Virus record (IMG/VR): IMGVR_UViG_2675903675_000001
Location: 1-64,000 of that record
Length of the DNA stretch: 64,000 bases
DNA from: a virus
Lineage: Duplodnaviria; Heunggongvirae; Uroviricota; Caudoviricetes
Direction: 5' to 3' (one strand)
Shown: piece after piece, positions 4,052 to 46,033 of the stretch
How positions within the stretch are numbered: the stretch's first letter is position 1
How the letters are laid out: each line of letters opens with the position of its first letter
Notes under the pieces: model-generated
Database searches by the model: none
What the model saw: the letters and a program-made list of their open reading frames with translations, nothing else
Told to the model about the DNA's origin: nothing
Made by a program: the position numbers and the translations under genes

Positions 4052-4263
4052 AAATTCTTATTAGCGGCGGCGGCAAAGCATTGCACGAACTTCGCAGAAG
4101 TTTATTGGGTCTATCACCCTCTTTTTTAACATTCGATGAATTTGACGGCTTTTTACCACAACCTTTCTATCAATCTACCCCGAACAAAAACAGATTAACG
4201 GGTGTTTTGAAAATGAAGCGTCTTTCAAGAACAAGAAGAAATAAGGCTAAGAACAAATGCTAA
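4048..4263 (+). CDS. hypothetical basic protein (71 aa)
   Basis: ATGA overlap with upstream ORF; Lys/Arg-rich C-terminus. Confidence 0.4.
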   Translation: MKILISGGGKALHELRRSLLGLSPSFLTFDEFDGFLPQPFYQSTPNKNRLTGVLKMKRLSRTRRNKAKNKC

Positions 4264-4601
4264 AAAAATTTTTACTCTCTATAGCGGTCTTTTTGTCTTT
4301 TGTTTTACTAAGCTCGGCTTACGCATCTAAAACAACGACCGACACTGCGAGCTTTACGAAGCAAGTCTCTAATTGCCGCGCTTATATTGACGGGATGACT
4401 TTTCCAGCGGTTGTTGTTGATACTCGTCGAAGTTTTATTGTTTTTGTTGATGGTCGAGAATACGCATCACCAGCTTTAGTCAACGGTTCTGGGGATTTGG
4501 TTTCAAGCGCGGAAAGCGATAAATTTAAGATAACAAGCGAAGGTTACACGGTATCAACGCCTGATGGTGTTTTTGATATAAGAAAATGCCAACTTTCTTG
4601 A
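4257..4601 (+). CDS. secreted protein with signal peptide (114 aa)
   Basis: N-terminal 'MLKKFLLSIAVFLSFVLLSSAYA' signal peptide. Confidence 0.5.
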   Translation: MLKKFLLSIAVFLSFVLLSSAYASKTTTDTASFTKQVSNCRAYIDGMTFPAVVVDTRRSFIVFVDGREYASPALVNGSGDLVSSAESDKFKITSEGYTVSTPDGVFDIRKCQLS

Positions 4602-4635
4602 TACTCTTTTTTAACGACCGCTGTGGTGAGTGCTG

Positions 4636-4794
4636 CTCTCGATAGTGGTCGTTTTGTTTTTGCTCTCTATAGCGGTCGTTCATTCCCTATTTCTTTGATT
4701 TTCTGATTTTTTCTAATAATTCCAACTCTTCCCTAGTCAATTCAGCCAAAACAGTATCTCCACTCTCTATAGCGGTCTTACTCTCTATAGCGGT
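4636..4794. repeat. iteron set downstream of repA (incA-like): 4 copies of CTCTC[T/G]ATAG[C/T]GGTC
   Basis: 15-mers at 4636-4650, 4663-4677, 4762-4776, 4780-4794; the last two lie inside the repA 3' coding end and encode the duplicated 'KTAIES'. Confidence 0.8.
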
Positions 4795-5703
4795 CTTACC
4801 CTTCTTGGGTTGCTTAGGCGTTTTTGTTTTGTTGAGTTTTGGCATTCTTTCGTGGATTAAAAAGTAAACTGCGTTACCTCTTTTAGTCTCAGTGCAGTCC
4901 AAATACCCTATTTCTTTTAACTGATCTAAAGCTCTTCTGACTGTCGCATTTTGCGTATTGACCCTAGATTTTAAGTTTAATCTCGCTCTTAGCCTCGCCA
5001 TAGATACCGGAGCAGGGTTGCTTGGCAAGCTCTCAATGAACGTATACAAAGCCTGTGCGCTCTCTTTCCTAGGTAATTCGTTGATGGCCCTCAACTGCAA
5101 CAAAACCTTGTGATCAAACTGGTATAACTCAAATATCTTTGGGTCTGCTTGAATAGTTACGGTATCGGCATCCATGTCGTAAGAAGCTGATTGAACAAGA
5201 TGCGTGTGGTAAGCCTTTTTATCATTTGTAAACGATAGCGTTGTTGACACAATACGTCTTAGGGACTCGTCCAGCCTTTCTCTTAGTCGCTTTGACGATC
5301 TGGACGAGGGTATTCCACAAAGTTTAACAAAATCAACAAACTTCAACGTTACCTTGTCACCTATCACCTTATGTTTAGCGAAAGAGTGAATAATGCCGAT
5401 CCATGTTTTGAAATCATTATCCATATCAAGACGTTCACCAGTTATCTTGATATTGGTGTAACCTTCTGATTTAGCTAAAGACAATTGCCTCAATTCATCA
5501 GTAGCATCCATCACCGCCATGAGATTTCGCTTACTGTTTTTGGTTGATTTAAGCGTAGGAACAAACAAGCCCAGTCTCATCAGTGCGACTGGCTGTACGG
5601 TGTTGTTACCGTTGGGAGATAACGTTACAAGCTCACCCGTATCTTTGTTAGCTTCTGAAAAATAAGGTAATAATTTACCATCTTCGCTTTTTTTAGTAGG
5701 CAA
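4687..5703 (-). CDS. repA: plasmid-type replication initiator, RepA-like (iteron-binding)
   Basis: 338-aa ORF sitting between two arrays of the same 15-bp iteron, as in P1 and other iteron-replicon plasmids; basic C-terminus; the protein family call is by context, not by a recognised motif. Confidence 0.6.
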
Positions 5704-5751
5704 GAATACACCCCTTTCGTTAAATCAGCTCTCACAGCGGTCTATTATTAC

Positions 5752-5941
5752 CTCTCTACATCGGTCGTGTCACTGTCTACAGCCGTTTATTTGCTCTCTA
5801 TAGCGGTCGTTGTTTGGTGAAATATCAGCGGTGATTCGTGTGTGGATAGTTTTATGCGCTGCTCTCTATAGTGGTCGTTAATCACTGTCTATAGTGGTCG
5901 GTCTGCTCTCTATAGTGGTCGTTTTACTCTCTATAGTGGTC
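5752..5941. repeat. iteron set upstream of repA (origin iterons): 7 copies, mostly at 21-bp phasing
   Basis: CTCTCTA[C/T]A[G/T][C/T]GGTC-type 15-mers at 5752, 5773, 5794, 5862, 5885, 5906 and 5927; 21-bp spacing within each triplet, i.e. two helical turns. Confidence 0.8.
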
Positions 5942-5981
5942 ATCAACCCCCTCTCAGGTCTTATGCACCAAGGGCTGCGGC

Positions 5982-6051
5982 GATCGGGGATCTTATAGGA
6001 TCTATTTAGGGATCTTATTATTGGATCTATCCTGTTGATAAGTGGATAACT
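5982..6051. promoter_or_regulatory. origin accessory region: 5 GATC sites within 46 bp plus two DnaA-box-like 9-mers
   Basis: GATC at 5982, 5989, 5999, 6011 and 6024 within GGATCT[T]AT repeats; 'tgttgataa' (6033-6041) and 'gtggataac' (6043-6051) are each 8/9 to the reverse complement of TTATCCACA. Confidence 0.6.
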
Positions 6052-6128
6052 CACCTGCTCGTTTTTCTTTTTCGCCTTCGTGGATGTTTGATAATTCAAT
6101 TACACACAAAACGAGAAGGAAATTTAAA

Positions 6129-6434
6129 ATGAATATTGGTGATGAAGTTGTAGCATGTGTCGGTATTAGAAGACACGAGGGATCTAAGTGTATCGCGATT
6201 TATGGCGTAGGTGAATTTTTAGGTGAACTAATGCCAGAACCGCATCATCCATTAACAGCAAAGGAGCGGGTTCAGAACACTCGTTTACCTCAAAATATGG
6301 CTAATATCGGCGGTGTTGTTGTTTCTGAGTGGCAATCACCATTCTATACGGTGGATGAGTTTAATCTCATCGTTGCAAAGAATGTTGAGTTAGAGGTAAT
6401 TAAGTTCCCGATCATCGTTAAAACACTTATTTAA
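6129..6434 (+). CDS. hypothetical protein (101 aa)
   Basis: ATG 6129 with AAGGA RBS; the upstream part of the track ORF crosses the origin and is unlikely to be coding. Confidence 0.45.
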   Translation: MNIGDEVVACVGIRRHEGSKCIAIYGVGEFLGELMPEPHHPLTAKERVQNTRLPQNMANIGGVVVSEWQSPFYTVDEFNLIVAKNVELEVIKFPIIVKTLI

Positions 6435-6512
6435 AAATAAATAGGCATTTCGGCACAACATTAAAAAAATCAGATATGATTTGCCTATAACTAGATTAAC
6501 AAGGCAAATCTA

Positions 6513-7265: not shown

Positions 7266-8351
7266 ATGAAGAAAGCACTTTACGGTTTAATATCCGACAC
7301 TCATTACCATGTTTGGAACGCCTTCGCTTCAACATCTCATGACGGAATGAACTCACGTCTTAAAATTCAGCTTGATGCTACTTGGGAAGCCGCTGTTGCT
7401 GCTAAAAATGCAGGTGCAAAGTATCTATTCCACGCTGGTGATGTTTTCCATGTACGCGGCTCAATCGCGCCAACTGTTTTAAACAACACGTCGGATTTGT
7501 ACAACAAGATTAGAAATGAGTTAGGTTTGGAAATTTTTATTCTTGCTGGAAACCATGATCTTGAAACCAACGAATCTGTTTTATCAGCCAACGCCTCAAC
7601 CTCGTTTTCAAAAATTGGTGCAGAAATTGTTTGTTCACAAACGCCAAAAACGTTCAAGGTTGATGATGTTTGCGTTCACATGATTAGTTGGCATAGCGAC
7701 CACAAGGCATTACTGAATACAGTAAAAGAGTTAGCCAAAACATTAGATCCATCAGTGCCTAATGACTTGATTATTCATACCTCAATCAACAAAGCCATTC
7801 CCGGTATGCCGGATGTTGGTATGGAAGCTGAGGAGTTTGAAGGTCTTGGTTTTCGCTACGTATTGTCAGGTCATTACCACAACCACAAAGAGGTTATACC
7901 CGGAGTTGTCTCTATCGGCGCATTGACTCATCAAAATTGGGGTGATGTTGGTACAACGGCAGGGTATATGCTCATCAACGAAGACGGCTCGTATTCGCAA
8001 CATGAAACCAAATCCCCTAAATTTTTGGAGCTGGATGCTGATCTGGACGCTGAAAAAGTCAAAGGTAACTATGTCCGTATCAGTGCAGTAATCAAAAACG
8101 ACGAAGACGGTAAAAAGCTCGAAGAATTAGCGAAGCTGTGGGGTGCTAAAGGCGTTGCGCGAAACTTCACGAAAGAATCATCATTGGTTGGTGCGACAGC
8201 AGCAACGGCTGGGACGGCGAAGATTGACGGCTTGAAAGAGTCGGTCGGCAACTATTGTGTGTTGCTTGGCAAGTCGAGCAGCGATATTGACGTGTCGAAG
8301 TTAACCGGTATTTGTAACGATATTATGTCTCAAGCGGAAGGTGCTGAATAA
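7266..8351 (+). CDS. sbcD: SbcD/Mre11-family recombination nuclease (T4 gp47-like)
   Basis: Calcineurin-like phosphoesterase motifs in order: 'ISDTHYH', 'AGDVFH', 'LAGNHD', 'SGHYHNH'; stop overlaps the start of the SbcC-like gene. Confidence 0.8.
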   Translation: MKKALYGLISDTHYHVWNAFASTSHDGMNSRLKIQLDATWEAAVAAKNAGAKYLFHAGDVFHVRGSIAPTVLNNTSDLYNKIRNELGLEIFILAGNHDLETNESVLSANASTSFSKIGAEIVCSQTPKTFKVDDVCVHMISWHSDHKALLNTVKELAKTLDPSVPNDLIIHTSINKAIPGMPDVGMEAEEFEGLGFRYVLSGHYHNHKEVIPGVVSIGALTHQNWGDVGTTAGYMLINEDGSYSQHETKSPKFLELDADLDAEKVKGNYVRISAVIKNDEDGKKLEELAKLWGAKGVARNFTKESSLVGATAATAGTAKIDGLKESVGNYCVLLGKSSSDIDVSKLTGICNDIMSQAEGAE

Positions 8352-10270
8352 TGAAATTTATTAACATGACGATCGAAAACTTTATGCGTATTGCCGAAGC
8401 TAAGGTTGAGCTTAATGATCGTGGTTTGATTTTAATTCAAGGTAAGAACACTGACGATACTTCCGCTGATAGTAACGGTTCTGGTAAATCAACGCTAATG
8501 AACGCCTTGTGCTGGGCTATCTACGGCGAAACTGCCAACGGCATGAAGTCCGATGATGTTCTCAGTACAGGGTTTGAGAAAAACTGTCGTGTTATGGTTA
8601 TTGTCGAAGATGAAGACGGTAAGCGATACTCAATCATGCGTCATCGCGCTCACGTCGCCAACAAGAACCGTCTTATGATTTCAAACGAAGATGGGGATCT
8701 AACTAAAGGCACTGACAGACTCACCCAAGAATTTATCGAGAAGCTTATCGGCGCGTCAAAAGAAGTCTTTTTGGCATCCATATACGCAAGCCAAGAAAAC
8801 ATGCCCGATCTACCCGGCATGACAGACAAAAACTTAAAAGCGATTGTAGAAGAAGCGGCTGGTGTAAATCGTCTGACTCTTTCTTATGAGATTTCTCGTG
8901 ACCGTCACAATGCGAAGTTGGCTGAATTAGGGGGTGTAGAAGGTAAAATCACAATCGCGGATCGTGCTTTTATTAGCGCACTCGAAACATCGGAAGAAAC
9001 AGAGTCATCAGCCGTAAAGTGGGAGTCGCAACGAAAAGAACGTATAGAGGAAGCTAAAAAGAGTATCAACTATGCCGAAATCACACTTACTGAACTCTCT
9101 TTTGCAAATAAAGATTTGGAAAGTGCCGCCAACATTGATGAAAAAATAATAGCGATTCGAGCCGAAATATCTAGCGTCAGTGAGCATGATAAAAAAATTG
9201 AAACTATCAGAAAAGGTATTTCAACGGCTAACTCAAATCTTGCTGTGAAAAACAGCGACTTGACTCGATTGAAAAATCGGGCTGGTTCTGAAATGGAAAG
9301 AGCTAAAACGGTATCCGCGAAAGTTGGATCGCCATGTTCCGAATGTGGCAAGCCTTACTGCGAAGCTGACTTAGAAACCGTAAAAAACAGTCACACCTCA
9401 AAAGCAAGGGATTATTTAGTTGAGATTAAATCAACTATTCAGCCTGAAATTGAGCGTATTCAGGAAACTGTAGAAAAAGGCGAAAAAATGCTTGAGGTTT
9501 TAAAATCCTCTCGACCTAATGTTGATTCTCAAATTGAGAAAATCGCCCTTCTGCAAAAAAACAAAAGCGCTATTGAAAAATCTCTCAGCGAAGAACGTTC
9601 CGCCGATAAAGTCTACAAAGATGAGAAAAGTAAATTAAGCATAATCGAAGCTGAGAAAAACCCATTTGCCGCGCTCATTGAAAAGACAAAGAAAGAAGCC
9701 GCGCTCCTGAAAGATAATTTAAAAGATTTAAAGGAAGTTAAGAAGAAATTAGAAGATGAATGTTTTCTACTCGAGGCTGCTCGGAAAGTATTCTCACCAT
9801 CCGGTGTCCGCAGTCATATTTTGTCTAACGTAACGCCTTTCTTAAATTCAAGAACAGCGGAGTATCTCAATACATTATCTGACGGCACGATTGAAGCTGT
9901 TTGGTCTACCATGGAAACCACGAAGAAAGGTGAAGTTAGAGACAAGTTTAACATTGCGGTGTCGAAAGTGGGTGCATCTAAATCATTTGGCGGTCTGTCT
10001 GGTGGTGAGAAGCGTAAAGTTAGAATTGCAACGGCGTTGGCTTTGCAAGATCTCGTCGCTAGTCGTGCAACTAAAAACATTCAATTGTTTATTGGTGATG
10101 AAATCGACGACGCTTTAGATACAGCAGGTTTAGAGCGTTTGATGGGTATTTTGGAAGTTAAGGCTCGTGAGCGAGGCACTGTAATGATTATCTCTCACAA
10201 AGAAATGAAATCATGGTTTAGAGAGACGATAACGGTTGAATCTAAGGACGGTCGTTCTTATGTCAGCTAA
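8351..10270 (+). CDS. sbcC: SbcC/Rad50-family ATPase (T4 gp46-like)
   Basis: Walker A 'GSGKST', long central coiled-coil with zinc-hook-like 'CSECGKPYC', ABC signature 'LSGGEKRKV', Walker B 'LFIGDEID'. Confidence 0.8.
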   Translation: MKFINMTIENFMRIAEAKVELNDRGLILIQGKNTDDTSADSNGSGKSTLMNALCWAIYGETANGMKSDDVLSTGFEKNCRVMVIVEDEDGKRYSIMRHRAHVANKNRLMISNEDGDLTKGTDRLTQEFIEKLIGASKEVFLASIYASQENMPDLPGMTDKNLKAIVEEAAGVNRLTLSYEISRDRHNAKLAELGGVEGKITIADRAFISALETSEETESSAVKWESQRKERIEEAKKSINYAEITLTELSFANKDLESAANIDEKIIAIRAEISSVSEHDKKIETIRKGISTANSNLAVKNSDLTRLKNRAGSEMERAKTVSAKVGSPCSECGKPYCEADLETVKNSHTSKARDYLVEIKSTIQPEIERIQETVEKGEKMLEVLKSSRPNVDSQIEKIALLQKNKSAIEKSLSEERSADKVYKDEKSKLSIIEAEKNPFAALIEKTKKEAALLKDNLKDLKEVKKKLEDECFLLEAARKVFSPSGVRSHILSNVTPFLNSRTAEYLNTLSDGTIEAVWSTMETTKKGEVRDKFNIAVSKVGASKSFGGLSGGEKRKVRIATALALQDLVASRATKNIQLFIGDEIDDALDTAGLERLMGILEVKARERGTVMIISHKEMKSWFRETITVESKDGRSYVS

Positions 10271-15393: not shown

Positions 15394-15424
15394 GAGTGAC
15401 TACAGTTGTCACTCATTTATTATT
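15394..15424 (+). terminator. rho-independent terminator
   Basis: gagtgac-tacagtt-gtcactc followed by an AT/T-rich tail. Confidence 0.6.
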
Positions 15425-15473
15425 ATCATCAATAAATAAACAAGATAAATTATTAATTTAAGGAAATAACTAA

Positions 15474-21336: not shown

Positions 21337-21945
21337 ATGGTAAATAATAAAACAAGCGTTTCTTTAAAAAGAGACAAATCATTAAAAGATCTGTGGAGAA
21401 CGCCTAAATGGTTAGTTCAAGCGATTCAAACCGTATTATCGATTGAGTTCGAGGTTGATGTTGCTTGTAACAAACAAAACGCGCTTTTTGCTAATTACAT
21501 AGGCGTTGAAAAAGATGCTTTGACCTGTAGTTGGGGTTCACCAGGCACAAAGGCATTTTTGAACCCACCTTACTCTAACATTACGCCTTGGGTATATGCC
21601 GCAATTAGAGAGCAGTCTCGCGGCGTAACAACGGTCATGCTTATTCCGCAATCTATCGATACTAAGTGGTATTTGCTTGCTAGAGATTACGCAAATGAGG
21701 TCTTGCTTATTATCGGTGGGAGAATTGCGTTTCTTGAGCCAGATGTTGCCATGGGGTTTAAAGAAAATCGAAAAAATACAGGCGGAAGTATGTTAGTCGT
21801 TTTCCGTGGTTATTCTGATAAAGCAGGTTGCGTTATTCGAGAGGTCCCTATCTCAACGATGAAAGATATCGGTGGTTATATTCCGCCAGTGAGCGCCAAA
21901 GGAGCACCTAAAAAGAAACCCAAAAAATTGTGTACCGCAGCATAG
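21337..21945 (+). CDS. dam: phage-type DNA N6-adenine methyltransferase (Dam family)
   Basis: 'DLWRTPKWLVQAI', 'FEVDVACN...ALF', 'AFLNPPYSNITPWV' are the diagnostic blocks of the small phage Dam family (NPPY catalytic motif). Confidence 0.8.
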   Translation: MVNNKTSVSLKRDKSLKDLWRTPKWLVQAIQTVLSIEFEVDVACNKQNALFANYIGVEKDALTCSWGSPGTKAFLNPPYSNITPWVYAAIREQSRGVTTVMLIPQSIDTKWYLLARDYANEVLLIIGGRIAFLEPDVAMGFKENRKNTGGSMLVVFRGYSDKAGCVIREVPISTMKDIGGYIPPVSAKGAPKKKPKKLCTAA

Positions 21946-23728: not shown

Positions 23729-26700
23729 TCAGATTTTTCCACCGACACCTTTGAACTTTTCAATAAAATTGACGAACTTCTGGTATACCGTCTGTTTCTT
23801 GGTTTTGTATTGAGGGTTCAGTGGACTGAGTTTAGGTAATGTATCATTCAGTGCTGTGCCGTTTTCCGTGGCATATTCACGCTTGAGGGCATTTCTGATG
23901 TAGCGTCTGGTGGCGTCTTCATTCAGATTTTCCTCTTTTATTAAGGCGTCAGCCTCACGCAACTGAGCTTCTTGAGCGAACGTGTAGAATGCTTCAATAA
24001 TTCCTTCTCTATTCGTCATATCATCGAGGTTGGTCTGTTCGATAAAATCAACCATCAGCCCCTCCTTGGCTCTATTGCCGAGACTAGCACGAATCAACCG
24101 TTTCACTTCCTCTTTCACGGTGGCTTTGTCGGTATTTTTTTTGTGGTAGTCGTAAATTAGCCCCAGAATATAGTCGAGGTTAATCTCCTGAGACTTCAGC
24201 AAATCTATTTCAAAGACCACATCATCCCAGTCAACGTTCGTGCTATCCTTTTCATTGGCAGAGCGCTCACGGCGTTGCCAGTCACGAATATCGTTGTAGC
24301 TTGAGCGGTAGTCCTGAATTTTTCGCTCAGCCGGTAATCGTATGATTTGAAGTTCAGCAAATTTCTCATCATCCAGATAATGCTCGTTTTTAAATGCTTC
24401 CACAGCAACCGGATCGCTAAGATTAACGGTTTGCAGGGCTTTCAGTGAGGTAAATTCATCATAGTTTTGTAGGATACTCTCTGCTCGCAAGTACTCACCA
24501 AACAGTTTAACAAAGGCTTTCTTCTCTTTCTCCGATTCAATATCTGCTGGGTTCGGAAAGCGCGTTTCTAGCTCGGTGACGATATTCATAAAACCACGGC
24601 GAGCCTCACCCGTTACCGCATCTGTAAAACCTTCCATGTACTCTGTGTAACTTTTTTCCATCACCACACTTTTAGTATTACTTTTTCCAAACAGGGTGAT
24701 GGCATCAATGGTTGCCTGCTCTAAATCGCGGAAGGTGACAATGTTACCGAAAGTTTTCGTCGCATTGTAAATCCGGTTAGTCCGGGAAAATGCCTGCATC
24801 AATCCGTGATAACGCAGGTTTTTATCCACAAACAAGGTGTTAAGCGTCGGAGCATCAAAACCGGTCAGGAACATACCAACCACAATCAGCAGGTCAACCT
24901 CCTGCCCTTTAACCCGTTTTGCAAGGTCACGGTAGTAGTTTTGAAAGCTATTTCCGTCGGTACTGAAGTTGGTTTTAAAGCTGGCATTATAGTCGCCAAT
25001 CGCTGATTCCAGAAACTCTCGGGCGCTGCTGTTCATTGCCGTGACATCAAAGCTCTCATCATTAATATCCCCGACCGCGTCCTGCTCTTCATTGGCGGCA
25101 AAAGAGAAGATGGTGGCAACGGTCAGGGGCTTGTAGCTGCTATCTTGTTCAATGGCAGCCTGCTGGATGTGTTTAAACGCTTCGTAGTAAGCTTTTGCGG
25201 CATCAACACTGCTGACGGCAAACATGGCATTGAAGCCCGTTGCACCCGGGAAAGCGCGGTGTGTTTTTTTTCGAAAGTTTTTTAGAATGTAGTGGGTGAC
25301 TTCACTAATTCGCATGGGGTGCAGCAGAGCGTGCTTGTTTTCAGCAGCAGTGAGTTTTTTCTCATCCGTCTCAGTTTCTATTTCTTTAAATTGCGGGCGA
25401 ACATCATTGTAATCCACCTTAAACTTCAGCACTTTCTCATCACTAATGGCATCGGTGATAATGTAGGAATGCAGTTCTGCACCAAAAACGCTGGCAGTAT
25501 CTTCTGCACCTAAGGCATTTTTACCCGCAAAAATCGGCGTCCCCGTAAATCCGAACTGATAGAAACGTTTGAATTTCTTTTTCAGGTTCTTCTGAGCTTC
25601 ACCAAACTGACTGCGGTGACACTCATCGAAAATAAAAACAACTTGTTGCTGATATACCGGTAAATCAGCTTCTGCTTTTATCAGGTTGTTCAGTTTTTGA
25701 ATAGTAGTGACAATAATTTTGTTATCATCTTTTTCTAAATTACGTTTCAGCCCTGCCGTGCTATCAGAGCCATTCACGCTATCAGGGGAAAAGCGCTGAT
25801 ACTCTTTCATGGTCTGGTAATCGAGGTCTTTACGGTCAACCACGAAGAACACTTTATCTATGAAATCCAGTTCGGTCGCCAATCGTGCCGCTTTAAAGCT
25901 GGTCAGAGTCTTTCCTGAACCTGTGGTGTGCCAAATAAAGCCACCACTTTCTTTGCTGCTCCAGTTTTTGGCGTGGTAGGTACTGTTAATTTTCCACAAA
26001 ATACGCTCAGTAGCGGCTATCTGGTAAGGACGCATAATCAGCAGGTTATTACTGATATCAAAGACAGAATAATTGAACAAAATGTTCAGTAGAGTATTTT
26101 TTTGGAAGAATGTCGCCGTGAAATCTTTTAGGTCTTTAATTAGCGTATTGTCAGACCTAGCCCAATTCATGGTGAAATCAAAACTGTTCTTATCCCGTTT
26201 TGTGGTATTAGCAAAGTAACGGGTATCTGTGCCGTTTGAAATGATGAACACTTGCAGATATTTAAACAGAGAATTGTCGGTGTTGAAACTCTCTTTACTG
26301 TAGCGATGTATCTGGTTAAAGGCTTCTTTAATCGCGACACCACGTTTTTTAAGCTCAATTTGCACCAAGGGTAAACCGTTAACTAAGATAGTGACATCAT
26401 AACGATTAGCGTGGGTGCCCGTTTGTTCAAATTGCTGAATGACCTGCACTTTGTTACGAAGAAGATTTTTCTTATCAACAAGGTAGATATTTTCTAATCG
26501 TCCATCATCAAAAGTGAAGTCGCAGATATAATCGATATGAATTTTTCGGGTCTTATCAACAATTGAATCGCTTGGGTTATCCAAATACTGCTCAGTAAAA
26601 CGCCGCCATTCACTTTCAGTAAAAAACACTTTATTCAACGTTTGAAGCTGTGCACGTACGTTTGCTAGCATCGTGGATTGTGATGTTATATCAGGGACAA

Positions 26701-26851
26701 ACTCATACCCTTGATTACGTAAATCCTGAATCAGTTCGCATTCTAAATCTGCTTCACTTTGATAGCGGTCATTCTCATCCCACTCAGTCACGTATTTATC
26801 CAGCACAATAAAGTTATTGGATTCGGCAATGGTTTTTATTTGCTGCGTCAT
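23729..26851 (-). CDS. hsdR: Type I restriction enzyme, restriction subunit HsdR
   Basis: 1040 aa; SF2 helicase motifs '[12 protein letters not shown]' (I), '[10 protein letters not shown]' (II, DEAH-type), 'FGFTGTP' (III); size and order typical of HsdR. Confidence 0.9.
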
Positions 26852-26929
26852 ACGGCTCCCTGCTTTTTCATTCTGTTGTGCTGAATGCCGGTAAAACCGG
26901 CATAACAGACGTTATCAGGCGGTCATGTG

Positions 26930-28140
<1,211 letters not shown>

Positions 28141-28144
<4 letters not shown>

Positions 28145-29697
28145 ACCTGCACCTCGCTGCTTTCAATTTCTGCCACTATCGCATCGATATCTGTACGTAG
28201 CTGGTCAATTCTGGCAACTGTCTTTTTCAACTCAGCATTCAGTTCAGTAATGTTAACGATTTCGCGGGTGTCTTCGGCTACCACATAGCTACTGACTGAC
28301 AGGTTATAGTCATTGGCAGCTACAGCTTCAGACGTGACAGATTTTGCTAGATAGTCTGTATCTTCTTTGCTGTCGAAGACCTGCATGATTTGTGCGATTT
28401 GTTCATCCGTCAGGACGTTGTTATTGGTCTCTTTTTTGAATAAGCCGCTGGCATCAATAAACTGCACGTTCGTATCTGTTTTATGCTTTGACAGCACCAG
28501 AATATTCACGGCAATGGTTGTTCCGAAGAACAGGTTAGGCGCTAAAGAAATCACCGTTTCAACATAGTTATTATCAACCAAATATTGCCGAATTTTTTGC
28601 TCTGCACCACCACGGTAGAAAATCCCCGGAAAACAGACTATTGCCGCACGTCCCTTGGATGACAGATAATTTAGTGCATGGAGGACAAACGCAAAATCCG
28701 CTTTTGATTTTGGTGCCAACACCCCCGCTGGGGCGAAGCGATCATCATTAATCAGTGTCGGGTCATCACTGCCAATCCATTTCACCGAATAAGGTGGATT
28801 AGACACAATCGCATCAAACGGCTTGTCATCCTTAAATTCAGGTGCAAGTAAGGTGTTGCCCAGTTTAATGTTGAATTTATCGTAGTTGATGTTGTGCAGG
28901 AACATGTTCATACGCGCAAGGTTAAAGGTCGTATGATTAATCTCCTGACCAAAGAAGCCGTCTTCGATGATGTGATTATCAAAGTGTTTTTTCGCCTGAA
29001 GCAGCAGTGAACCGGAACCACAGGCAGGGTCATAGATTTTATTCACGTGAGTCTGACCGTGCATAGCCAACTGAGCAATCAGTTTTGACACATGCTGAGG
29101 TGTAAAGAACTCACCGCCTGACTTACCGGCATTGGCTGCATAATTAGAAATCAGAAACTCATACGCATCGCCGAACAGGTCTATTTGATGCTCGATAAAG
29201 TTACCGAGCTTTAATCCCTCCACGCCTTTCAGCACAGCGGCAAGCCGGATGTTTTTATCTTTGACGGTGCTTCCCAGTCGATTACTGGTGGTATCAAAAT
29301 CGGCGAACAAGCCTTTGATATCCGGTTCAGATGGGAAGCCAGACGCAGAGCTTTCAATTGCCACAAAAATACTGTTTAAATCTGCGTTTAGTCGGTCATT
29401 GGTGTTCGCTTTAGCCGCCACATTGCAAAACAGTTGACTCGGATAAATAAAATACCCTTTCGTTCTGACAGCATCTTCTTTGATATCGTTAGTGATTATA
29501 CTGTCATCAAGCGCCGCATACCGGATACTGTCATCACCGGCTTCAATGTAATTAGCGAAGTTTTCACTGATAAATCGGTAAAACAGCGCCCCAAGAACAT
29601 ATTGCTTAAAGTCCCATCCATCCACTGAACCTCGGACATCGTTAGCTATTGCCCATATCTGGCGGTGTAGTTCTGCTCGCTGTTGTAAACTTGTCAT
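28141..29697 (-). CDS. hsdM: Type I restriction-modification N6-adenine DNA methyltransferase HsdM
   Basis: 518 aa; motif I '[12 protein letters not shown]', motif IV 'NPPYSVKW'; N-terminal HsdM_N-like helical domain. Confidence 0.9.
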
Positions 29698-30293: not shown

Positions 30294-30860
30294 TCAGAAA
30301 CGGTAACCAACGCCAAGATTAAAGCCATTAATAGAATGACTGCCATTCATATCAATCTTCGTACCTTCATAGCCTAAGTTAACAGATACATTTTTGATTG
30401 GATTAATGACAATTCCCGCACCGTAAGCGAAATTGGTTTTTGTGGTAGATGCTGATTCATACTCATAATAACCTTGCTCTTTATAAGAACTTTCCACATC
30501 AGCTTTCATGCGCGCAGCACCAATTAATCCATATAAACTAACATAGTCATTAATACGATACGCAGGCCCTGCAAGTAATGAATAATATTTCAGATCTGCT
30601 TTAGCTTTTAAATAGTCACCCATGTCATTGCTTTCATGAGCAGAATCATCACCCTTCATATAAGTGAATGAACCAACAATACTGACAGGTGAATCCCACT
30701 CATAACGATACTGTAAATTTACGCCATGAATATTTTTAAAATCTTGGACTTTACTCTGAGCATAACCTATAGATACCGTTTGATTGTCAGCGTAAGCCAT
30801 ACTTCCAAACAAGCACCCTGCAACAATAATTGCTGATAAATATTTATTTTTTGTATTCAT
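30294..30860 (-). CDS. Ail/Lom/OmpX-family outer-membrane beta-barrel protein
   Basis: ATG at 30860 on the minus strand; signal peptide 'MNTKNKYLSAIIVAGCLFGSMAYA'; alternating amphipathic strands and a C-terminal 'GVGYRF' ending in Phe, typical of 8-strand OMPs of the Ail/Lom/PagC family. Confidence 0.75.
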   Translation of the reverse strand: MNTKNKYLSAIIVAGCLFGSMAYADNQTVSIGYAQSKVQDFKNIHGVNLQYRYEWDSPVSIVGSFTYMKGDDSAHESNDMGDYLKAKADLKYYSLLAGPAYRINDYVSLYGLIGAARMKADVESSYKEQGYYEYESASTTKTNFAYGAGIVINPIKNVSVNLGYEGTKIDMNGSHSINGFNLGVGYRF

Positions 30861-31359
30861 GTTTAATGTAATCCATTGATTTAAAATTAATAAAAATAAA
30901 ACAACCACTAAAAACTACTAACAATTAAGAATAAATTAAATCATTACATAATGTTATTATCAATGTATTTTTGTGATTTAGTGTAAAAAATACAAGATGT
31001 TTATTTTGTATTACTTAGTTGTTTTTGTTCTGATATAAGAATGATCTTTTTTGTTTTGGCTTAATTTTCCAAGCCGCCGTCTCAGGTTTAATCTCTAAGA
31101 GACAATGAACGCGATAAACTAGTTTATGTTTAAAGGGGGAGCCTTGGAATATTAGTCGGAAATAGAATTCCCAGAAACTTGACTGAAGTGAGTCAAAAAC
31201 TGCTCCTTACTTAAAGAAACTGGCATTGTTTTTTCTTATAAAAACTAACGTTTTGACGATTGAAATAAATACCTTTATTTGCTTATTGTCAGCCTTTTTT
31301 TACATGTGAAAATAAAATCAATAAGAAATTGATATTAATTACATGATGAGGTTAACAAT

Positions 31360-33051
31360 ATGGGCACTTTAGTTGCTTCCACCGCTGATTTACTGTTCCA
31401 ACAAAACGATGTGGCTTTCCGTGAGGAAGTTAATCAAATCAGAAGCGTGATTGCCGAGTATCAACGTGAAGAAGCTGAACGTGAAATGCTTCATAAAATC
31501 TTATTTTCTGGTGATCGAGTTTCTAAGATTAATCAGTTATTAGATGAAGCATCAAAACCTGGTGAAAGAAATTCAGGTTTTTACCGATTACCCAATCAAA
31601 TTGACTTCGATTATGTTCGTTCAAATTTAAGAGCGCAGTATTGGCAAAAGGTTGTCGATATGACAAACGTTCTTCAACTAATGCCAGCAAACCGTCGTGA
31701 GCAGTGGAGAAGCCAATTCATTGAAGGCAAAATGACGCTGGATAATCCGCTAGAACATGGTAAACGTCGCGTTACAGGTGATTATGTTGGTGTGCCTGAG
31801 TTTAATGAGAATACGGTAGTTCCAACGCTTTTAGGTTTGCTAAACGACAGAAACATGTATTTGAATGAGCGTGTTTATAATGTGTTCAGCGTTCTAAGCC
31901 CTAAGCACAAAACTAATAAAAGCTATGGCTTTTCTGAAAAATTGATTGTCGCCGACGTGGTATCACAGTTTTGGGGCAACAGCGTTTGGCTGAATACCTA
32001 TCGAGAAGACAACATTGACGATCTAAGAATGACATTGCGGTTCTTCGCTCACGGTAGATTTGGTCGCGTTCAGAGTTTGAAGGATGTGTTGAGTAAAGTA
32101 TACACGGACGGTAATGTTGGAAAGTGGGCTTCAATTGACGGCAATGTGATGCGTGTGAAGATGTTTAAGAATGGCAATTTACATATTGAAATTCACCCTG
32201 ACGTTGCATGGCGGCTCAACGAAGTGCTGGCGGCATCATTACCGTACGCAATCCCATCCGAATTTAGAAGTGTACCTAATTCACGTTCAGCGGTGAAAGA
32301 TTTTGGGGAAATTATCCATATCTTAGATGAAGATATGATATCGCTAATCGCCAACACCTACATAGATAAGAAAACAGGCAAATACAAGTGTTTGGATAAC
32401 AACTGGAACCGCCACAAAGCATCACATAAAGAATATAATTCGATTATGCAAAAGTTAGGAGGCGAGTTCGATCCTGAGATTAAATCATGGTCATTTAGTT
32501 ATGATTTTGATTGTGTGAGAGGTTACATTGTCGAAAATCGTTCAATGCCAGATCAGAAAAGTTACCAGTTCTACCCTACACCGGAGACTATTCAAGTTTA
32601 CGTTTCGGATTTAATCACGTTACAGGACGACGAAACCCTATTAGAGCCATCAGCAGGACGGGGTGACTTGATTTCACCAATAAACCAACCAGAGCAAACA
32701 ACGTGTATTGAGCTTTCCCCTTTGTTCTGCCAGATATTAAAGTCAAAAGGGTATGAGTCAATCAATGAAGACTTTTTGAAATGGTCGAGTAATAACGAAG
32801 GCGTTTATTTTGATAAAATAGCCATGAACCCACCTTACTCAGAAGGTAGAGCAAAGGTCCATGTGAAAGCGGCAATCAGTCATTTAAAATCAGGTGGTCG
32901 TTGTGTTGCGGTTGTACCCGGAAGTGAGCGTATGGATTGGGTTGATAAGTCGCTATACTCGGTTGAGGACTGCGCCACGTTCAGTAATGAATTTGAAGAC
33001 ACAGGCGTAACAGTGAAAGTATTTACGATAGATAAGCGTCGGAAATTATAG
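31360..33051 (+). CDS. 563-aa protein with a C-terminal gamma-class-like SAM methyltransferase domain (motif X 'FYPTP', motif I 'LLEPSAGRGDL', motif IV 'NPPY'); the N-terminal 400 aa are unknown
   Basis: Motif order X-I-IV within residues about 405-500 as in gamma-type N6-adenine/N4-cytosine MTases; only about 50 aa follow NPPY, so no C-terminal TRD. Confidence 0.6.
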   Translation: MGTLVASTADLLFQQNDVAFREEVNQIRSVIAEYQREEAEREMLHKILFSGDRVSKINQLLDEASKPGERNSGFYRLPNQIDFDYVRSNLRAQYWQKVVDMTNVLQLMPANRREQWRSQFIEGKMTLDNPLEHGKRRVTGDYVGVPEFNENTVVPTLLGLLNDRNMYLNERVYNVFSVLSPKHKTNKSYGFSEKLIVADVVSQFWGNSVWLNTYREDNIDDLRMTLRFFAHGRFGRVQSLKDVLSKVYTDGNVGKWASIDGNVMRVKMFKNGNLHIEIHPDVAWRLNEVLAASLPYAIPSEFRSVPNSRSAVKDFGEIIHILDEDMISLIANTYIDKKTGKYKCLDNNWNRHKASHKEYNSIMQKLGGEFDPEIKSWSFSYDFDCVRGYIVENRSMPDQKSYQFYPTPETIQVYVSDLITLQDDETLLEPSAGRGDLISPINQPEQTTCIELSPLFCQILKSKGYESINEDFLKWSSNNEGVYFDKIAMNPPYSEGRAKVHVKAAISHLKSGGRCVAVVPGSERMDWVDKSLYSVEDCATFSNEFEDTGVTVKVFTIDKRRKL

Positions 33052-38550: not shown

Positions 38551-38920
38551 TACGTGTTTTTCTATAGATAAACTATGGCTTAACTATCTAGCCAAACAAG
38601 CAAAATAAGAAGGTAATAAAGGGAAATACTTATTTGTTTAAACGAACTATAATCCAATTTAAGCGATTTTGTAATTAAGTAATGCAATTTATCATTTGAT
38701 TAAATAAAGTCGCTTAGAATCGCTCTGGCTGGCTCTGTTTAGTGGTGTTATGTCGTTTGATGCAAGCAATTATAACCAGCCAACGAAAATAAACGCTGTA
38801 AGCCAGTGTAAGCGCGTGAATTGTTTAAGCAGTGCAATAGTGCGAAAAGCGCAAAAAAATGATTGTGGTGTGATTGGTGGAGTATAACGCGGATTGTAGT
38901 CTAGCGGCGTGAGCGACGAA

Positions 38921-44004: not shown

Positions 44005-44706
44005 ATGGAATGTAAAACTAATTTTTTAGAGGTCGAGACGGGAAAGCTGATTCCTAACGGCTGGAACACAAATAGCGTCCCGATCGCAAACATGGACAAG
44101 CTAAAAGCGTCGGTCGAGCGACTAGGTTTGTTTAAGCCGGTTATTGTTCGTGAAGTCGGTGATAAATATGAAATCCTTGGCGGTGAACATCGTTGGCGAG
44201 TTGCTGTTGAGCTAGGTTTACCTACTATCATGATTGCCAATCTAGGCGCAATTGATGAAAAAACCGCAAAGCAGATCTCAGTAGTGGACAACGAGCGGTA
44301 CGGTGAAGACGATGCCGAAAGCTTCTCTCGTTTGTTGGAAGATATTCAATTAGATCTTGATTACAGCTTTGCTGATTTAGCCCCTATCGAAGATATTTTG
44401 AAAGATGTAATGCCCTCTATTTCCTCAGAGTCAGCTTTTCGTGAGCTTGAAGCACTAAGTAGTGAAATGGGTATGAGTTCAGGCATGGACGAGTCTGAAC
44501 CCGAGCCTTTACGCGATCGCGCCGAAAAAACCGAAATTGGGAAAAGCCAAATGATGCGATTCAAAGTTTCCGCAGATGCGGCTGAAACTATTGAAGCGGT
44601 CATTGCGGCTGTTATCCGTGATGAAGGTATTAAAACAGGTAACAAAATGGAAGATGTGGGAGAAGCCTTTCTCTTCATCGCTGAAAAATACAAGGAAGTG
44701 CGCTAA
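44005..44706 (+). CDS. ParB-like nuclease (ParBc/Srx fold) domain protein 1
   Basis: 'KPVIVREVGDKYEILGGEHRWRVAVELGLPTI' matches the ParB N-terminal domain GxxR box; acidic C-terminal half. Confidence 0.65.
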   Translation: MECKTNFLEVETGKLIPNGWNTNSVPIANMDKLKASVERLGLFKPVIVREVGDKYEILGGEHRWRVAVELGLPTIMIANLGAIDEKTAKQISVVDNERYGEDDAESFSRLLEDIQLDLDYSFADLAPIEDILKDVMPSISSESAFRELEALSSEMGMSSGMDESEPEPLRDRAEKTEIGKSQMMRFKVSADAAETIEAVIAAVIRDEGIKTGNKMEDVGEAFLFIAEKYKEVR

Positions 44707-45380
44707 TGGAACATAAATTCGAGATTGTTTATTTAGACCCTCGCACTCTTACCCCGTATGCGAAGAACGCGAAGAAGCACAACGAGCAGCAAATCAAAGA
44801 CCTCGCGGAAGCTATCAAAAAGCGTGGATTTGACCAGCCGATTACGGTCGATAAAGACATGGTGATTATCACAGGTCATGGTCGAACAGAGGCGTCAATT
44901 TTCGCCGGGTTAAAATTGGTTCCGGTTATTATTCGTGATGATTTAAGCGAAAAAGAAGTTGCTGCTAAACGTCTTGAAGATAACCGTCTATCGAGCACCG
45001 ACTATGATGCGCTGCTGATCCAAGAAGAGCTTAAAGGCTTAATTGATGACGATATCGCGGTTTACGGATTTTCTGAGCGTGAATTGAGTGTTTTGGTTGA
45101 AGACATGACGGCGAATATTTCTACGGAAGATTTGGTTACTGATTTAGCAAGCGAAACCGAGCGTCAACGTGACGAGCATGAAGAGGTTACTCGCGAAGTT
45201 GCAAAATCAGATGTTCGTTTGGTGGACGTGATGGGCTTTAAATCGCTCCCTGCCAGCGTTGCGATTGAAGTGGGTGATTTGCTGTCACACATGGAAGAAG
45301 TCACGGGAAAAGAAGGGGTAGACGCTTTCGTGGCATTTGCACAGAAGATCTCAAAAGAAATGTACGGGGATAACGCATGA
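44706..45380 (+). CDS. ParB-like nuclease domain protein 2
   Basis: 'QPITVDKDMVIITGHGRTEASIFAGLKLVPVII' ParBc-like; translationally coupled to genes on both sides. Confidence 0.6.
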   Translation: MEHKFEIVYLDPRTLTPYAKNAKKHNEQQIKDLAEAIKKRGFDQPITVDKDMVIITGHGRTEASIFAGLKLVPVIIRDDLSEKEVAAKRLEDNRLSSTDYDALLIQEELKGLIDDDIAVYGFSERELSVLVEDMTANISTEDLVTDLASETERQRDEHEEVTREVAKSDVRLVDVMGFKSLPASVAIEVGDLLSHMEEVTGKEGVDAFVAFAQKISKEMYGDNA

Positions 45381-46033
45381 GCGAATATCTAATCAACGTA
45401 TCTTTTGATACGCGAGTCACAAAGACAACCCGAACCTTGGAAGTGGCAGAGTCTTTCGGCTTAGGTATGGACAATAAGCAATTCACGCTTTACGACAACC
45501 TTTCGGTAAAAATAGACCAGGGGGAGGTTGTTTACATTACCGGGCAATCAGGATCAGGTAAGTCGGTTATTTTACGTGAATTACAAAGGCTGATGAAAGA
45601 GAGCGGTAAAACGGTCGCGTCCATTGACGACATTGTGTTTGATGACAATGTGAACGTTATCGATCAGGTTGGCAAAACCACCGCAGAGGCTTTGAGTTTG
45701 CTGTCTATGGCTGGTTTGAACGACGCTTACCTATTTATCCGCAAACCTTCTGAAATGTCTGACGGCCAAAGATACCGACTCAAAATTGCTATGTTGATTG
45801 AATCCGGTGCGAACGTATGGGCCGCAGATGAATTTGGGGCCGTGTTAGACCGTGTTACAGCACAAGCCGTCGCTTCTAACTTCCAAAGAGCCGCACGCAA
45901 TGTCGGTGCTACCGTTATGGTGGCAACAACGCATGAGGATCTAATCAATGCTTTGCGTCCTAGCGTTACGATCACAAAGCATTACAAAGAGCGCGTGAAG
46001 GTCGATTATTCGGAGGATAGTGGCAATGAATGA
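45377..46033 (+). CDS. ABC-type/SMC-like P-loop ATPase (218 aa)
   Basis: Walker A 'GQSGSGKS', ABC signature-like 'MSDGQRYRL', Walker B 'VWAADEFGAVLD', H-loop 'ATTHE'. Confidence 0.6.
   Translation: MSEYLINVSFDTRVTKTTRTLEVAESFGLGMDNKQFTLYDNLSVKIDQGEVVYITGQSGSGKSVILRELQRLMKESGKTVASIDDIVFDDNVNVIDQVGKTTAEALSLLSMAGLNDAYLFIRKPSEMSDGQRYRLKIAMLIESGANVWAADEFGAVLDRVTAQAVASNFQRAARNVGATVMVATTHEDLINALRPSVTITKHYKERVKVDYSEDSGNE

Follow-up and report, generated by a model that had tools for sequence, protein, structure and literature searches.

The closest characterized relative of the replicon described here is that of phage P1. In the P1 GenBank record, an 18-bp DnaA site is followed, in order, by Dam sites 5 to 1, five incC iterons at 21-bp spacing with the promoter PrepA inside the array, repA, and nine incA iterons that run from the repA stop codon. 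Phage-plasmids of the SSU5 supergroup include SSU5, pHCM2, pKpn/pKPHS1, pMT1, and pSLy3 (Pfeifer et al. 2021, PMC7969092). Replication genes of the SSU5 type are held in plasmid-typing databases under IncFIB (10.1101/2025.09.12.675607), and iterons near repA have previously been noted for the Klebsiella pKPHS1 subgroup (PMC6735626). The RepFIB replicon of IncF plasmids is described, in the legend to Figure 3 of PMC11983097, as a rep gene between iterons, plus a DnaA site. In the phage-plasmid literature that we searched, the host genus Moellerella (Morganellaceae) was not found discussed. Here, we analyzed a stretch of 64,000 nucleotides from a tailed virus (positions 1 to 64,000 of IMG/VR record IMGVR_UViG_2675903675_000001; the window in the following). 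Judging from its sequence, the region at window positions 4275-6049 is very probably the theta-type, iteron-controlled replicon by which an SSU5-like siphovirus phage-plasmid of Moellerella wisconsensis replicates in its plasmid state; it is homologous to oriR/repA/incA of P1. Direct results are the sequence features of this region (Table 1) and their nonrandom occurrence, the finding that RepA and the origin module are homologous to those of P1, and the occurrence of the element in circular plasmid form. The locus is real but not new, since it is an ordinary plasmid-maintenance origin built like the well-studied origin of phage P1.

Table 1. Positions of the replicon features, from the outer end of the origin to the outermost iteron, and of the Dam gene in the window
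Feature	Position	Strand	Remarks
Two tandem DnaA boxes, TTATCCACT (6041-6049) and TTATCAACA (6033-6041)	6033-6049	-	Both 8/9 matches, one shared T; outer end of origin
Five GATC sites in AGATCC-type heptamers	5982-6027	-	AT-rich, 37% GC; presumably the site of Dam methylation, opening, and SeqA sequestration
GC-rich spacer	5942-5981	-	60% GC; between GATC region and iterons; aligns with P1, Klebsiella, and SSU5 spacers
Distal (origin) iteron array	5862-5941	-	4 copies, starts 5927, 5906, 5885, 5862; spacing 21/21/23 bp
Third DnaA box, CTATCCACA	5841-5849	-	Between the two iteron subarrays; counterpart of P1 right-hand box, AAAACTATCCACACA in common
Proximal iteron array	5731-5808	-	Copies 5794 and 5752, degenerate copies 5773 and 5731; 21-bp phase; contains candidate repA promoter; presumed autorepression operator
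repA	4687-5703	-	338 amino acids, TTG start preceded by AAAGGGG; P1 RepA/Rep_3 family initiator with SSU5-clade C-terminal tail (residues 287-338)
Two perfect iterons within repA 3' end	4763-4795	-	Encode KTAIES twice, in tail linker
Downstream incA-like iterons	4613-4680		Direct copies 4663 and 4636, one inverted degenerate copy 4613-4630 (15-mer match 4616-4630)
Outlying perfect iteron	4275-4289	-	Within signal-peptide codons of plus-strand open reading frame 4257-4601
Phage-type orphan N6-adenine methyltransferase (Dam)	21337-21945	+	PF05869, 126.7 bits

RepA and the circular phage-plasmid that encodes it

Because repA lies on the minus strand, its upstream side is at the higher coordinates. 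RefSeq annotates the same open reading frame (ORF) in the near-identical plasmids, where its label is that of a 'RepB family' initiator only. The first-pass annotation had proposed a search of the protein against Rep_3 profiles; this search returned the Pfam family PF01051, Rep3_N (WH1), at 44.4 bits, above the gathering score of 22.4 (E value of 2.8e-11), and phrog_775 was matched at 5.3e-135. An NCBIfam search with RepA yielded noise only. By tblastn, the protein was 48.9% identical to the repA products of P1 and P7 over residues 28 to 286 (E value of 1e-73), 69% identical to SSU5 RepA over residues 6 to 286, 55 to 57% identical to its counterparts in SSU5-like phage-plasmids of Klebsiella and E. 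coli, and 42 to 43% identical to phage copies labeled RepFIB. Full-length alignment of the RepA proteins gave identities to the window protein of 83% for Drgb1, 63% for SSU5, 51% for the Klebsiella plasmid pJN2-26, and 47% for P1. These comparisons identify RepA, on the level of protein sequence, as a true homolog of the P1/P7 and SSU5 RepA proteins, and family membership is settled because of the homology to P1 RepA.

P1 RepA is 286 residues long, and all tblastn matches ended at this residue of the window protein; the 52 residues beyond it form a tail. This tail is also present in Drgb1, SSU5, and pJN2-26, where a variable linker precedes a conserved ending (L[TS]xEExxLLExLRKxK). Conservation of the ending across the relatives indicates that the tail is translated and under selection and that it does not result from a missed stop codon. 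Within the tail coding region of the window (4687-4850, minus strand), the two perfect iterons encode the linker, and an iteron within the repA ORF was seen in Drgb1 and SSU5, too.

A near-identical element was found as circular plasmids of 103 to 108 kb in three complete M. wisconsensis genomes in RefSeq. Plasmid pNX2019-MW3 (108,260 bp) is 99 to 100% identical to the window, and pW18-2-b (108,166 bp) and pW1-b (103,329 bp) are 98 to 99% identical. The major capsid protein shares 83.7% identity with that of phage SSU5 over 100% of its length, and a family search detected terminase large-subunit domains in the window. The near-identical plasmid record additionally lists a tape measure protein, tail protein L, a C40 peptidase, and a tail assembly protein, and lambda-like distal tail genes are carried by the element. 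Because the circular 103- to 108-kb plasmids carry an SSU5-type capsid, terminase, and tail, the earlier proposal of a phage-plasmid with a P1-type replicon is supported, and the element is a member of the SSU5 supergroup. Megablast of positions 4200-6500 against the phage collection gave no match, and relatives of the locus were recovered only at the protein level and among plasmids.

Iterons and the origin module

The 15-mer CTCTCTATAGYGGTC occurs 13 times in the window at no more than three mismatches, compared to 1.47 expected occurrences, and none of 100 shuffled sequences reached 13. Twelve of these matches lie within 4275-5941 and flank repA, 11 on the same strand (plus-strand starts at 4275, 4636, 4663, 4763, 4781, 5752, 5794, 5862, 5885, 5906, and 5927) and one inverted; the remaining match, at 38733, is likely due to chance. 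Together with the flanks, the iteron unit is about 19 bp long (RCTCTCTATAGYGGTCGTT), and an independent repeat finder recovered the same iteron families. Upstream of repA, six good copies and two degenerate in-phase copies (starts 5731 and 5773) follow each other at start-to-start distances of 21, 21, 23, 68, 21, 21, and 21 bp, so that the previously noted array of about seven iterons at mostly 21-bp phasing was borne out. The five lowest of the listed starts and the inverted copy at 4613-4630 represent a control (incA-like) cluster at and after the 3' end of repA. Four downstream copies had been counted before; all of them exist (4636, 4663, 4763, and 4781), but those at 4763 and 4781 sit within the repA ORF, at its 3' end. 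Further iterons lie outside the range of 4635-6060 first assigned to the replicon, at 4275-4289 and, inverted, at 4613-4630. Plasmid pW1-b, one of the three Moellerella plasmids, carries a natural 27-bp deletion (window 4633-4659) that removes exactly one downstream iteron unit, namely, that holding the 4636 copy. Such a unit-length loss is the kind of change expected in an iteron array. The ORF that contains the outlying iteron (4257-4601, plus strand) encodes a small secreted-looking protein (MLKKIFTLSIAVFLSFVLLSSAYA...), and in Drgb1 the homologous gene contains an iteron at the corresponding position.

The five GATC sites that the first-pass annotation had placed within 46 bp were recovered with starts at 5982, 5989, 5999, 6011, and 6024, and their spacings of 13/12/10/7 resemble those of P1. 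This is the sole cluster of at least three GATC sites in 60 bp within the window. When 193 sites were placed at random, at least five in 46 bp were observed in 25 of 20,000 placements (P of about 0.001); in the window as a whole, GATC is neither depleted nor enriched (193 sites found versus 212 expected). The two 8/9 DnaA-box matches also stood, and the stretch that they occupy (6033-6049) aligns with the 18 bp of P1 oriR that are annotated as a DnaA binding site. The five GATC sites of the window align with P1 Dam sites 1 to 5. At the nucleotide level, the whole module of DnaA boxes, GATC heptamers, and spacer aligns with P1 oriR; GGATAGATCCAATAAT is identical in both, and AGATCCCCGATCGCCGCAG of the window matches AGATCCCTGATCGTTGCAG. 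The same module aligned at the nucleotide level among the window, P1, pJN2-26, SSU5, and Drgb1.

Iteron type differed by lineage. The window, Drgb1, and SSU5 have iterons of the CCACTATAGAGAG type, pJN2-26 has TATGCTGTCAGCGGT, and P1 has GATGTGTGCTGGAGGGAAA. Iteron sequence thus tracks RepA relatedness, which is the pattern expected of initiator-binding sites. A candidate repA promoter was located among the proximal iterons on the minus strand (5773-5744), with GTGACA as the -35 element (5773-5768) and AATAAT as the -10 element (5749-5744), together matching the sigma-70 consensus at 10 of 12 positions. Among the three Moellerella plasmids, the origin shows one to four differences in 381 bp, close to the 1 to 2% background. 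Greater conservation of the origin relative to its flanks was considered for these plasmids but is not claimed, as the differences are about those of the background. A scan of the whole window (1-64000) against Rfam yielded no family that reached its gathering score; therefore, no known antisense-RNA control element was recognizable.

Proposed mechanism, alternatives, and genomic surroundings

All of the binding and regulatory steps that follow are inferred by analogy with P1 and with iteron plasmids at large. RepA monomers would bind to the distal array at its 19-bp iterons, while host DnaA would occupy the boxes on either side of this array, at 6033-6049 and 5841-5849. RepA and DnaA together would then open the adjoining AT-rich stretch with the five GATC heptamers (5982-6032), where the host helicase would be loaded. 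After initiation, SeqA could sequester the GATC sites, hemimethylated once the fork has passed, and in this way limit reinitiation. The proximal iterons overlap the candidate promoter, and RepA on these iterons would repress repA; the iterons within the 3' end of the gene and past it (4275-4795) would titrate RepA and handcuff the origin iterons, keeping the copy number low. A rather doubtful extension of this scheme is that the SSU5-clade replicon has split two roles that are joined in P1 incC. In this extension, the distal array would serve as the origin and the proximal array, a remnant of a tandem duplication, as the repA operator; RepA would have gained its conserved tail, with its coding sequence running through control iterons, and RepA bound in its own 3' coding region could block its own transcription. 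If true, this would constitute an extra autoregulatory layer that is not described for P1.

Several results weigh against the proposed replicon or parts of it. DnaA boxes with one mismatch occur in the window at chance frequency (75 found versus 72 expected), and their support therefore comes from the column-by-column alignment with the annotated P1 DnaA site and not from statistics. Promoter matches, which were scored by consensus only, were no more common here than in shuffled sequences, and the combined promoter and terminator scan did not rise above shuffles. With regard to the WH1-WH2 fold, phmmer and a profile of five sequences gave no meaningful match among PDB sequences, so that structures of the RepE, pi, and pPS10 type could not be linked by sequence, and a single-sequence AlphaFold model of RepA was poor (mean predicted local distance difference test [pLDDT] of 44.5). 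Finally, genes for a DnaE, a primase, and a DnaB-like helicase are present on the element itself, so that replication may be divided between RepA-driven and phage-driven modes.

These replication genes bear on the possibility that the RepA/iteron origin serves the replisome of the element in lytic replication, whether in addition to or in place of plasmid replication. The near completeness of that replisome would fit such a role, and a second origin did not turn up in an analysis that included no search aimed at one. However, the P1 GenBank record annotates oriR, the counterpart in the closest characterized relative, as the origin of plasmid replication. Handcuffing and autorepression are, moreover, designs that limit copy number and are ill suited to runaway lytic replication. 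In P1, oriR and RepA serve the plasmid state only and lytic replication starts from a separate oriL/repL, which also counts against a lytic role. We therefore consider a lytic origin at this locus unlikely and retain the plasmid-maintenance replicon as the preferred reading.

The Dam-family ORF reported by the first-pass annotation was confirmed by the PF05869 match (Table 1), and this type of Dam is common in lambdoid, T1-like, and SSU5-like phages. It had been suggested that the origin GATC cluster is methylated chiefly by this enzyme, in which case the timing of replication would be set by the phage enzyme and not by host Dam. The presence of the gene, a 65% identical homolog in the record of the SSU5-like Klebsiella phage vB_KpnS_p4727, and the five GATC sites of the origin are consistent with this suggestion. 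Nevertheless, the GATC heptamer module is kept in P1 and in every relative examined, and the hosts of these relatives are Dam+/SeqA+ Enterobacterales. P1 has its own methyltransferase (Dmt), yet its oriR depends on host Dam and SeqA. The position of the dam gene within a block for nucleotide metabolism and DNA replication (nrdAB, thyA, dhfr, and exonuclease) suggests expression in the lytic phase, and GATC, the putative target of the enzyme, is at close to its expected number across the window. A replacement of host Dam by the element's Dam at the origin is speculation, and chief control by the phage enzyme appears quite improbable. That the repeats are no replication iterons at all, but a chance or other-purpose family (serving, for example, as a partition site or as operator for a different regulator) beside a decayed rep gene, is extremely improbable; nothing specific speaks for it apart from ParB-like genes in the window (44005-45380), which lie 39 kb away by the terminase, and it is contradicted by the placement of the repeats on both sides of repA exactly as in P1, by their 21-bp phasing and covariation with RepA across relatives, and by a repA that is intact and conserved.

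The gene set of the element includes DnaE, primase, a DnaB-like helicase, ligase, nrdAB, thyA, dhfr, and Dam. Just past the origin (7266-10270, plus strand), a metallophosphoesterase and a 639-amino-acid SMC/AAA_23 ATPase form an SbcD/SbcC-like nuclease pair. Two successive ParB_N-domain proteins and an ABC-type ATPase are encoded at 44005-46033 (plus strand), directly upstream of the terminase; this module may function in partition or in connection with packaging. No parAB was found beside the replicon, whose neighbors are small plus-strand ORFs without family matches, the ParB-like genes being about 39 kb off. According to the annotation of a near-identical record, a cargo block comprises a type I restriction-modification system (R, S, and M subunits), an Ail/Lom-family outer-membrane protein, and a DUF4942 protein (23729-29697, minus strand; 30294-30908, minus strand; and 31360-33051, plus strand). 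In pNX2019-MW3, an IS26 copy lies between nrdB and the gene for a nucleoside triphosphate pyrophosphohydrolase (NZ_CP129024.1, 71055-71759). It is absent from the corresponding window positions (about 15400-15470, offset of about 828 bp), and thus the window derives from a different, IS26-free copy of the element.

Comparison with P1, the SSU5 clade, and RepFIB

The main value of these results lies in annotation, as the maintenance replicon of Moellerella SSU5-like phage-plasmids has been identified together with its iterons and hence with the likely incompatibility determinant. No new biological question is raised.

Read in the direction of repA, the window presents the same order of elements as P1, with DnaA boxes, five GATC heptamers, a GC-rich spacer, 21-bp-phased iterons, repA, and more iterons. 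The P1 layout recognized in the first-pass annotation thus agrees with the annotated P1 record and with the alignment of the module to P1 oriR. In both replicons, an iteron unit of about 19 bp recurs at 21-bp spacing; the candidate promoter of the window lies among iterons, as PrepA does in P1. The right-hand DnaA box of the window matches that of P1 in the bases given in Table 1. The iteron sequence itself is unrelated (AACGACCRCTATAGAGAGY, also written AACGACCRCTATAGAGAG, in the window versus GATGTGTGCTGGAGGGAAA in P1), so that the incompatibility specificity is expected to differ from that of P1. The upstream array also differs, as the window has four plus four copies split around the right-hand (third) DnaA box, whereas P1 has five copies and then the box. 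Downstream, about five to six iterons, two of them within the ORF, compare with nine in P1. The RepA tail of about 50 residues, partly encoded by two iterons, has no counterpart in P1 RepA, and parAB, which follows the downstream iterons in the P1 layout, is not found there in the window. The virions differ as well, since the window encodes an SSU5-type siphovirus and P1 is a myovirus.

SSU5 and the Pectobacterium plasmid Drgb1 have the iteron type and the RepA tail motif in common with the window, and the supergroup resembles the window element in size (about 100 to 110 kb) and in its DNA-metabolism gene set. In SSU5 (L006 1822-2460) and in Drgb1 (L002 5500-5040, minus strand), the module of DnaA boxes, GATC sites, and five iterons is doubled in tandem, whereas the window has one GATC module and a bare proximal iteron array. 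The GATC sites of the repA-proximal module copy have decayed in both relatives (GAACC and GACCC), and from the sequences, the bare array of the window looks like a further-reduced form of this duplication. SSU5 has at least 14 downstream iterons in both orientations, and the window has fewer. RepFIB of IncF plasmids shares the initiator family and the plan of rep, iterons, and DnaA site with the window, a likeness drawn from descriptions of that replicon; P1-like records name their RepA homologs 'RepFIB replication protein A'. Across the SSU5 supergroup, the opening module of DnaA boxes and GATC heptamers known from P1 oriR is conserved nearly base for base, while iterons and RepA diverge together, and the contrast between the two, which could be of use in designing tools for curing or incompatibility, provides a tidy example of modular origin evolution.

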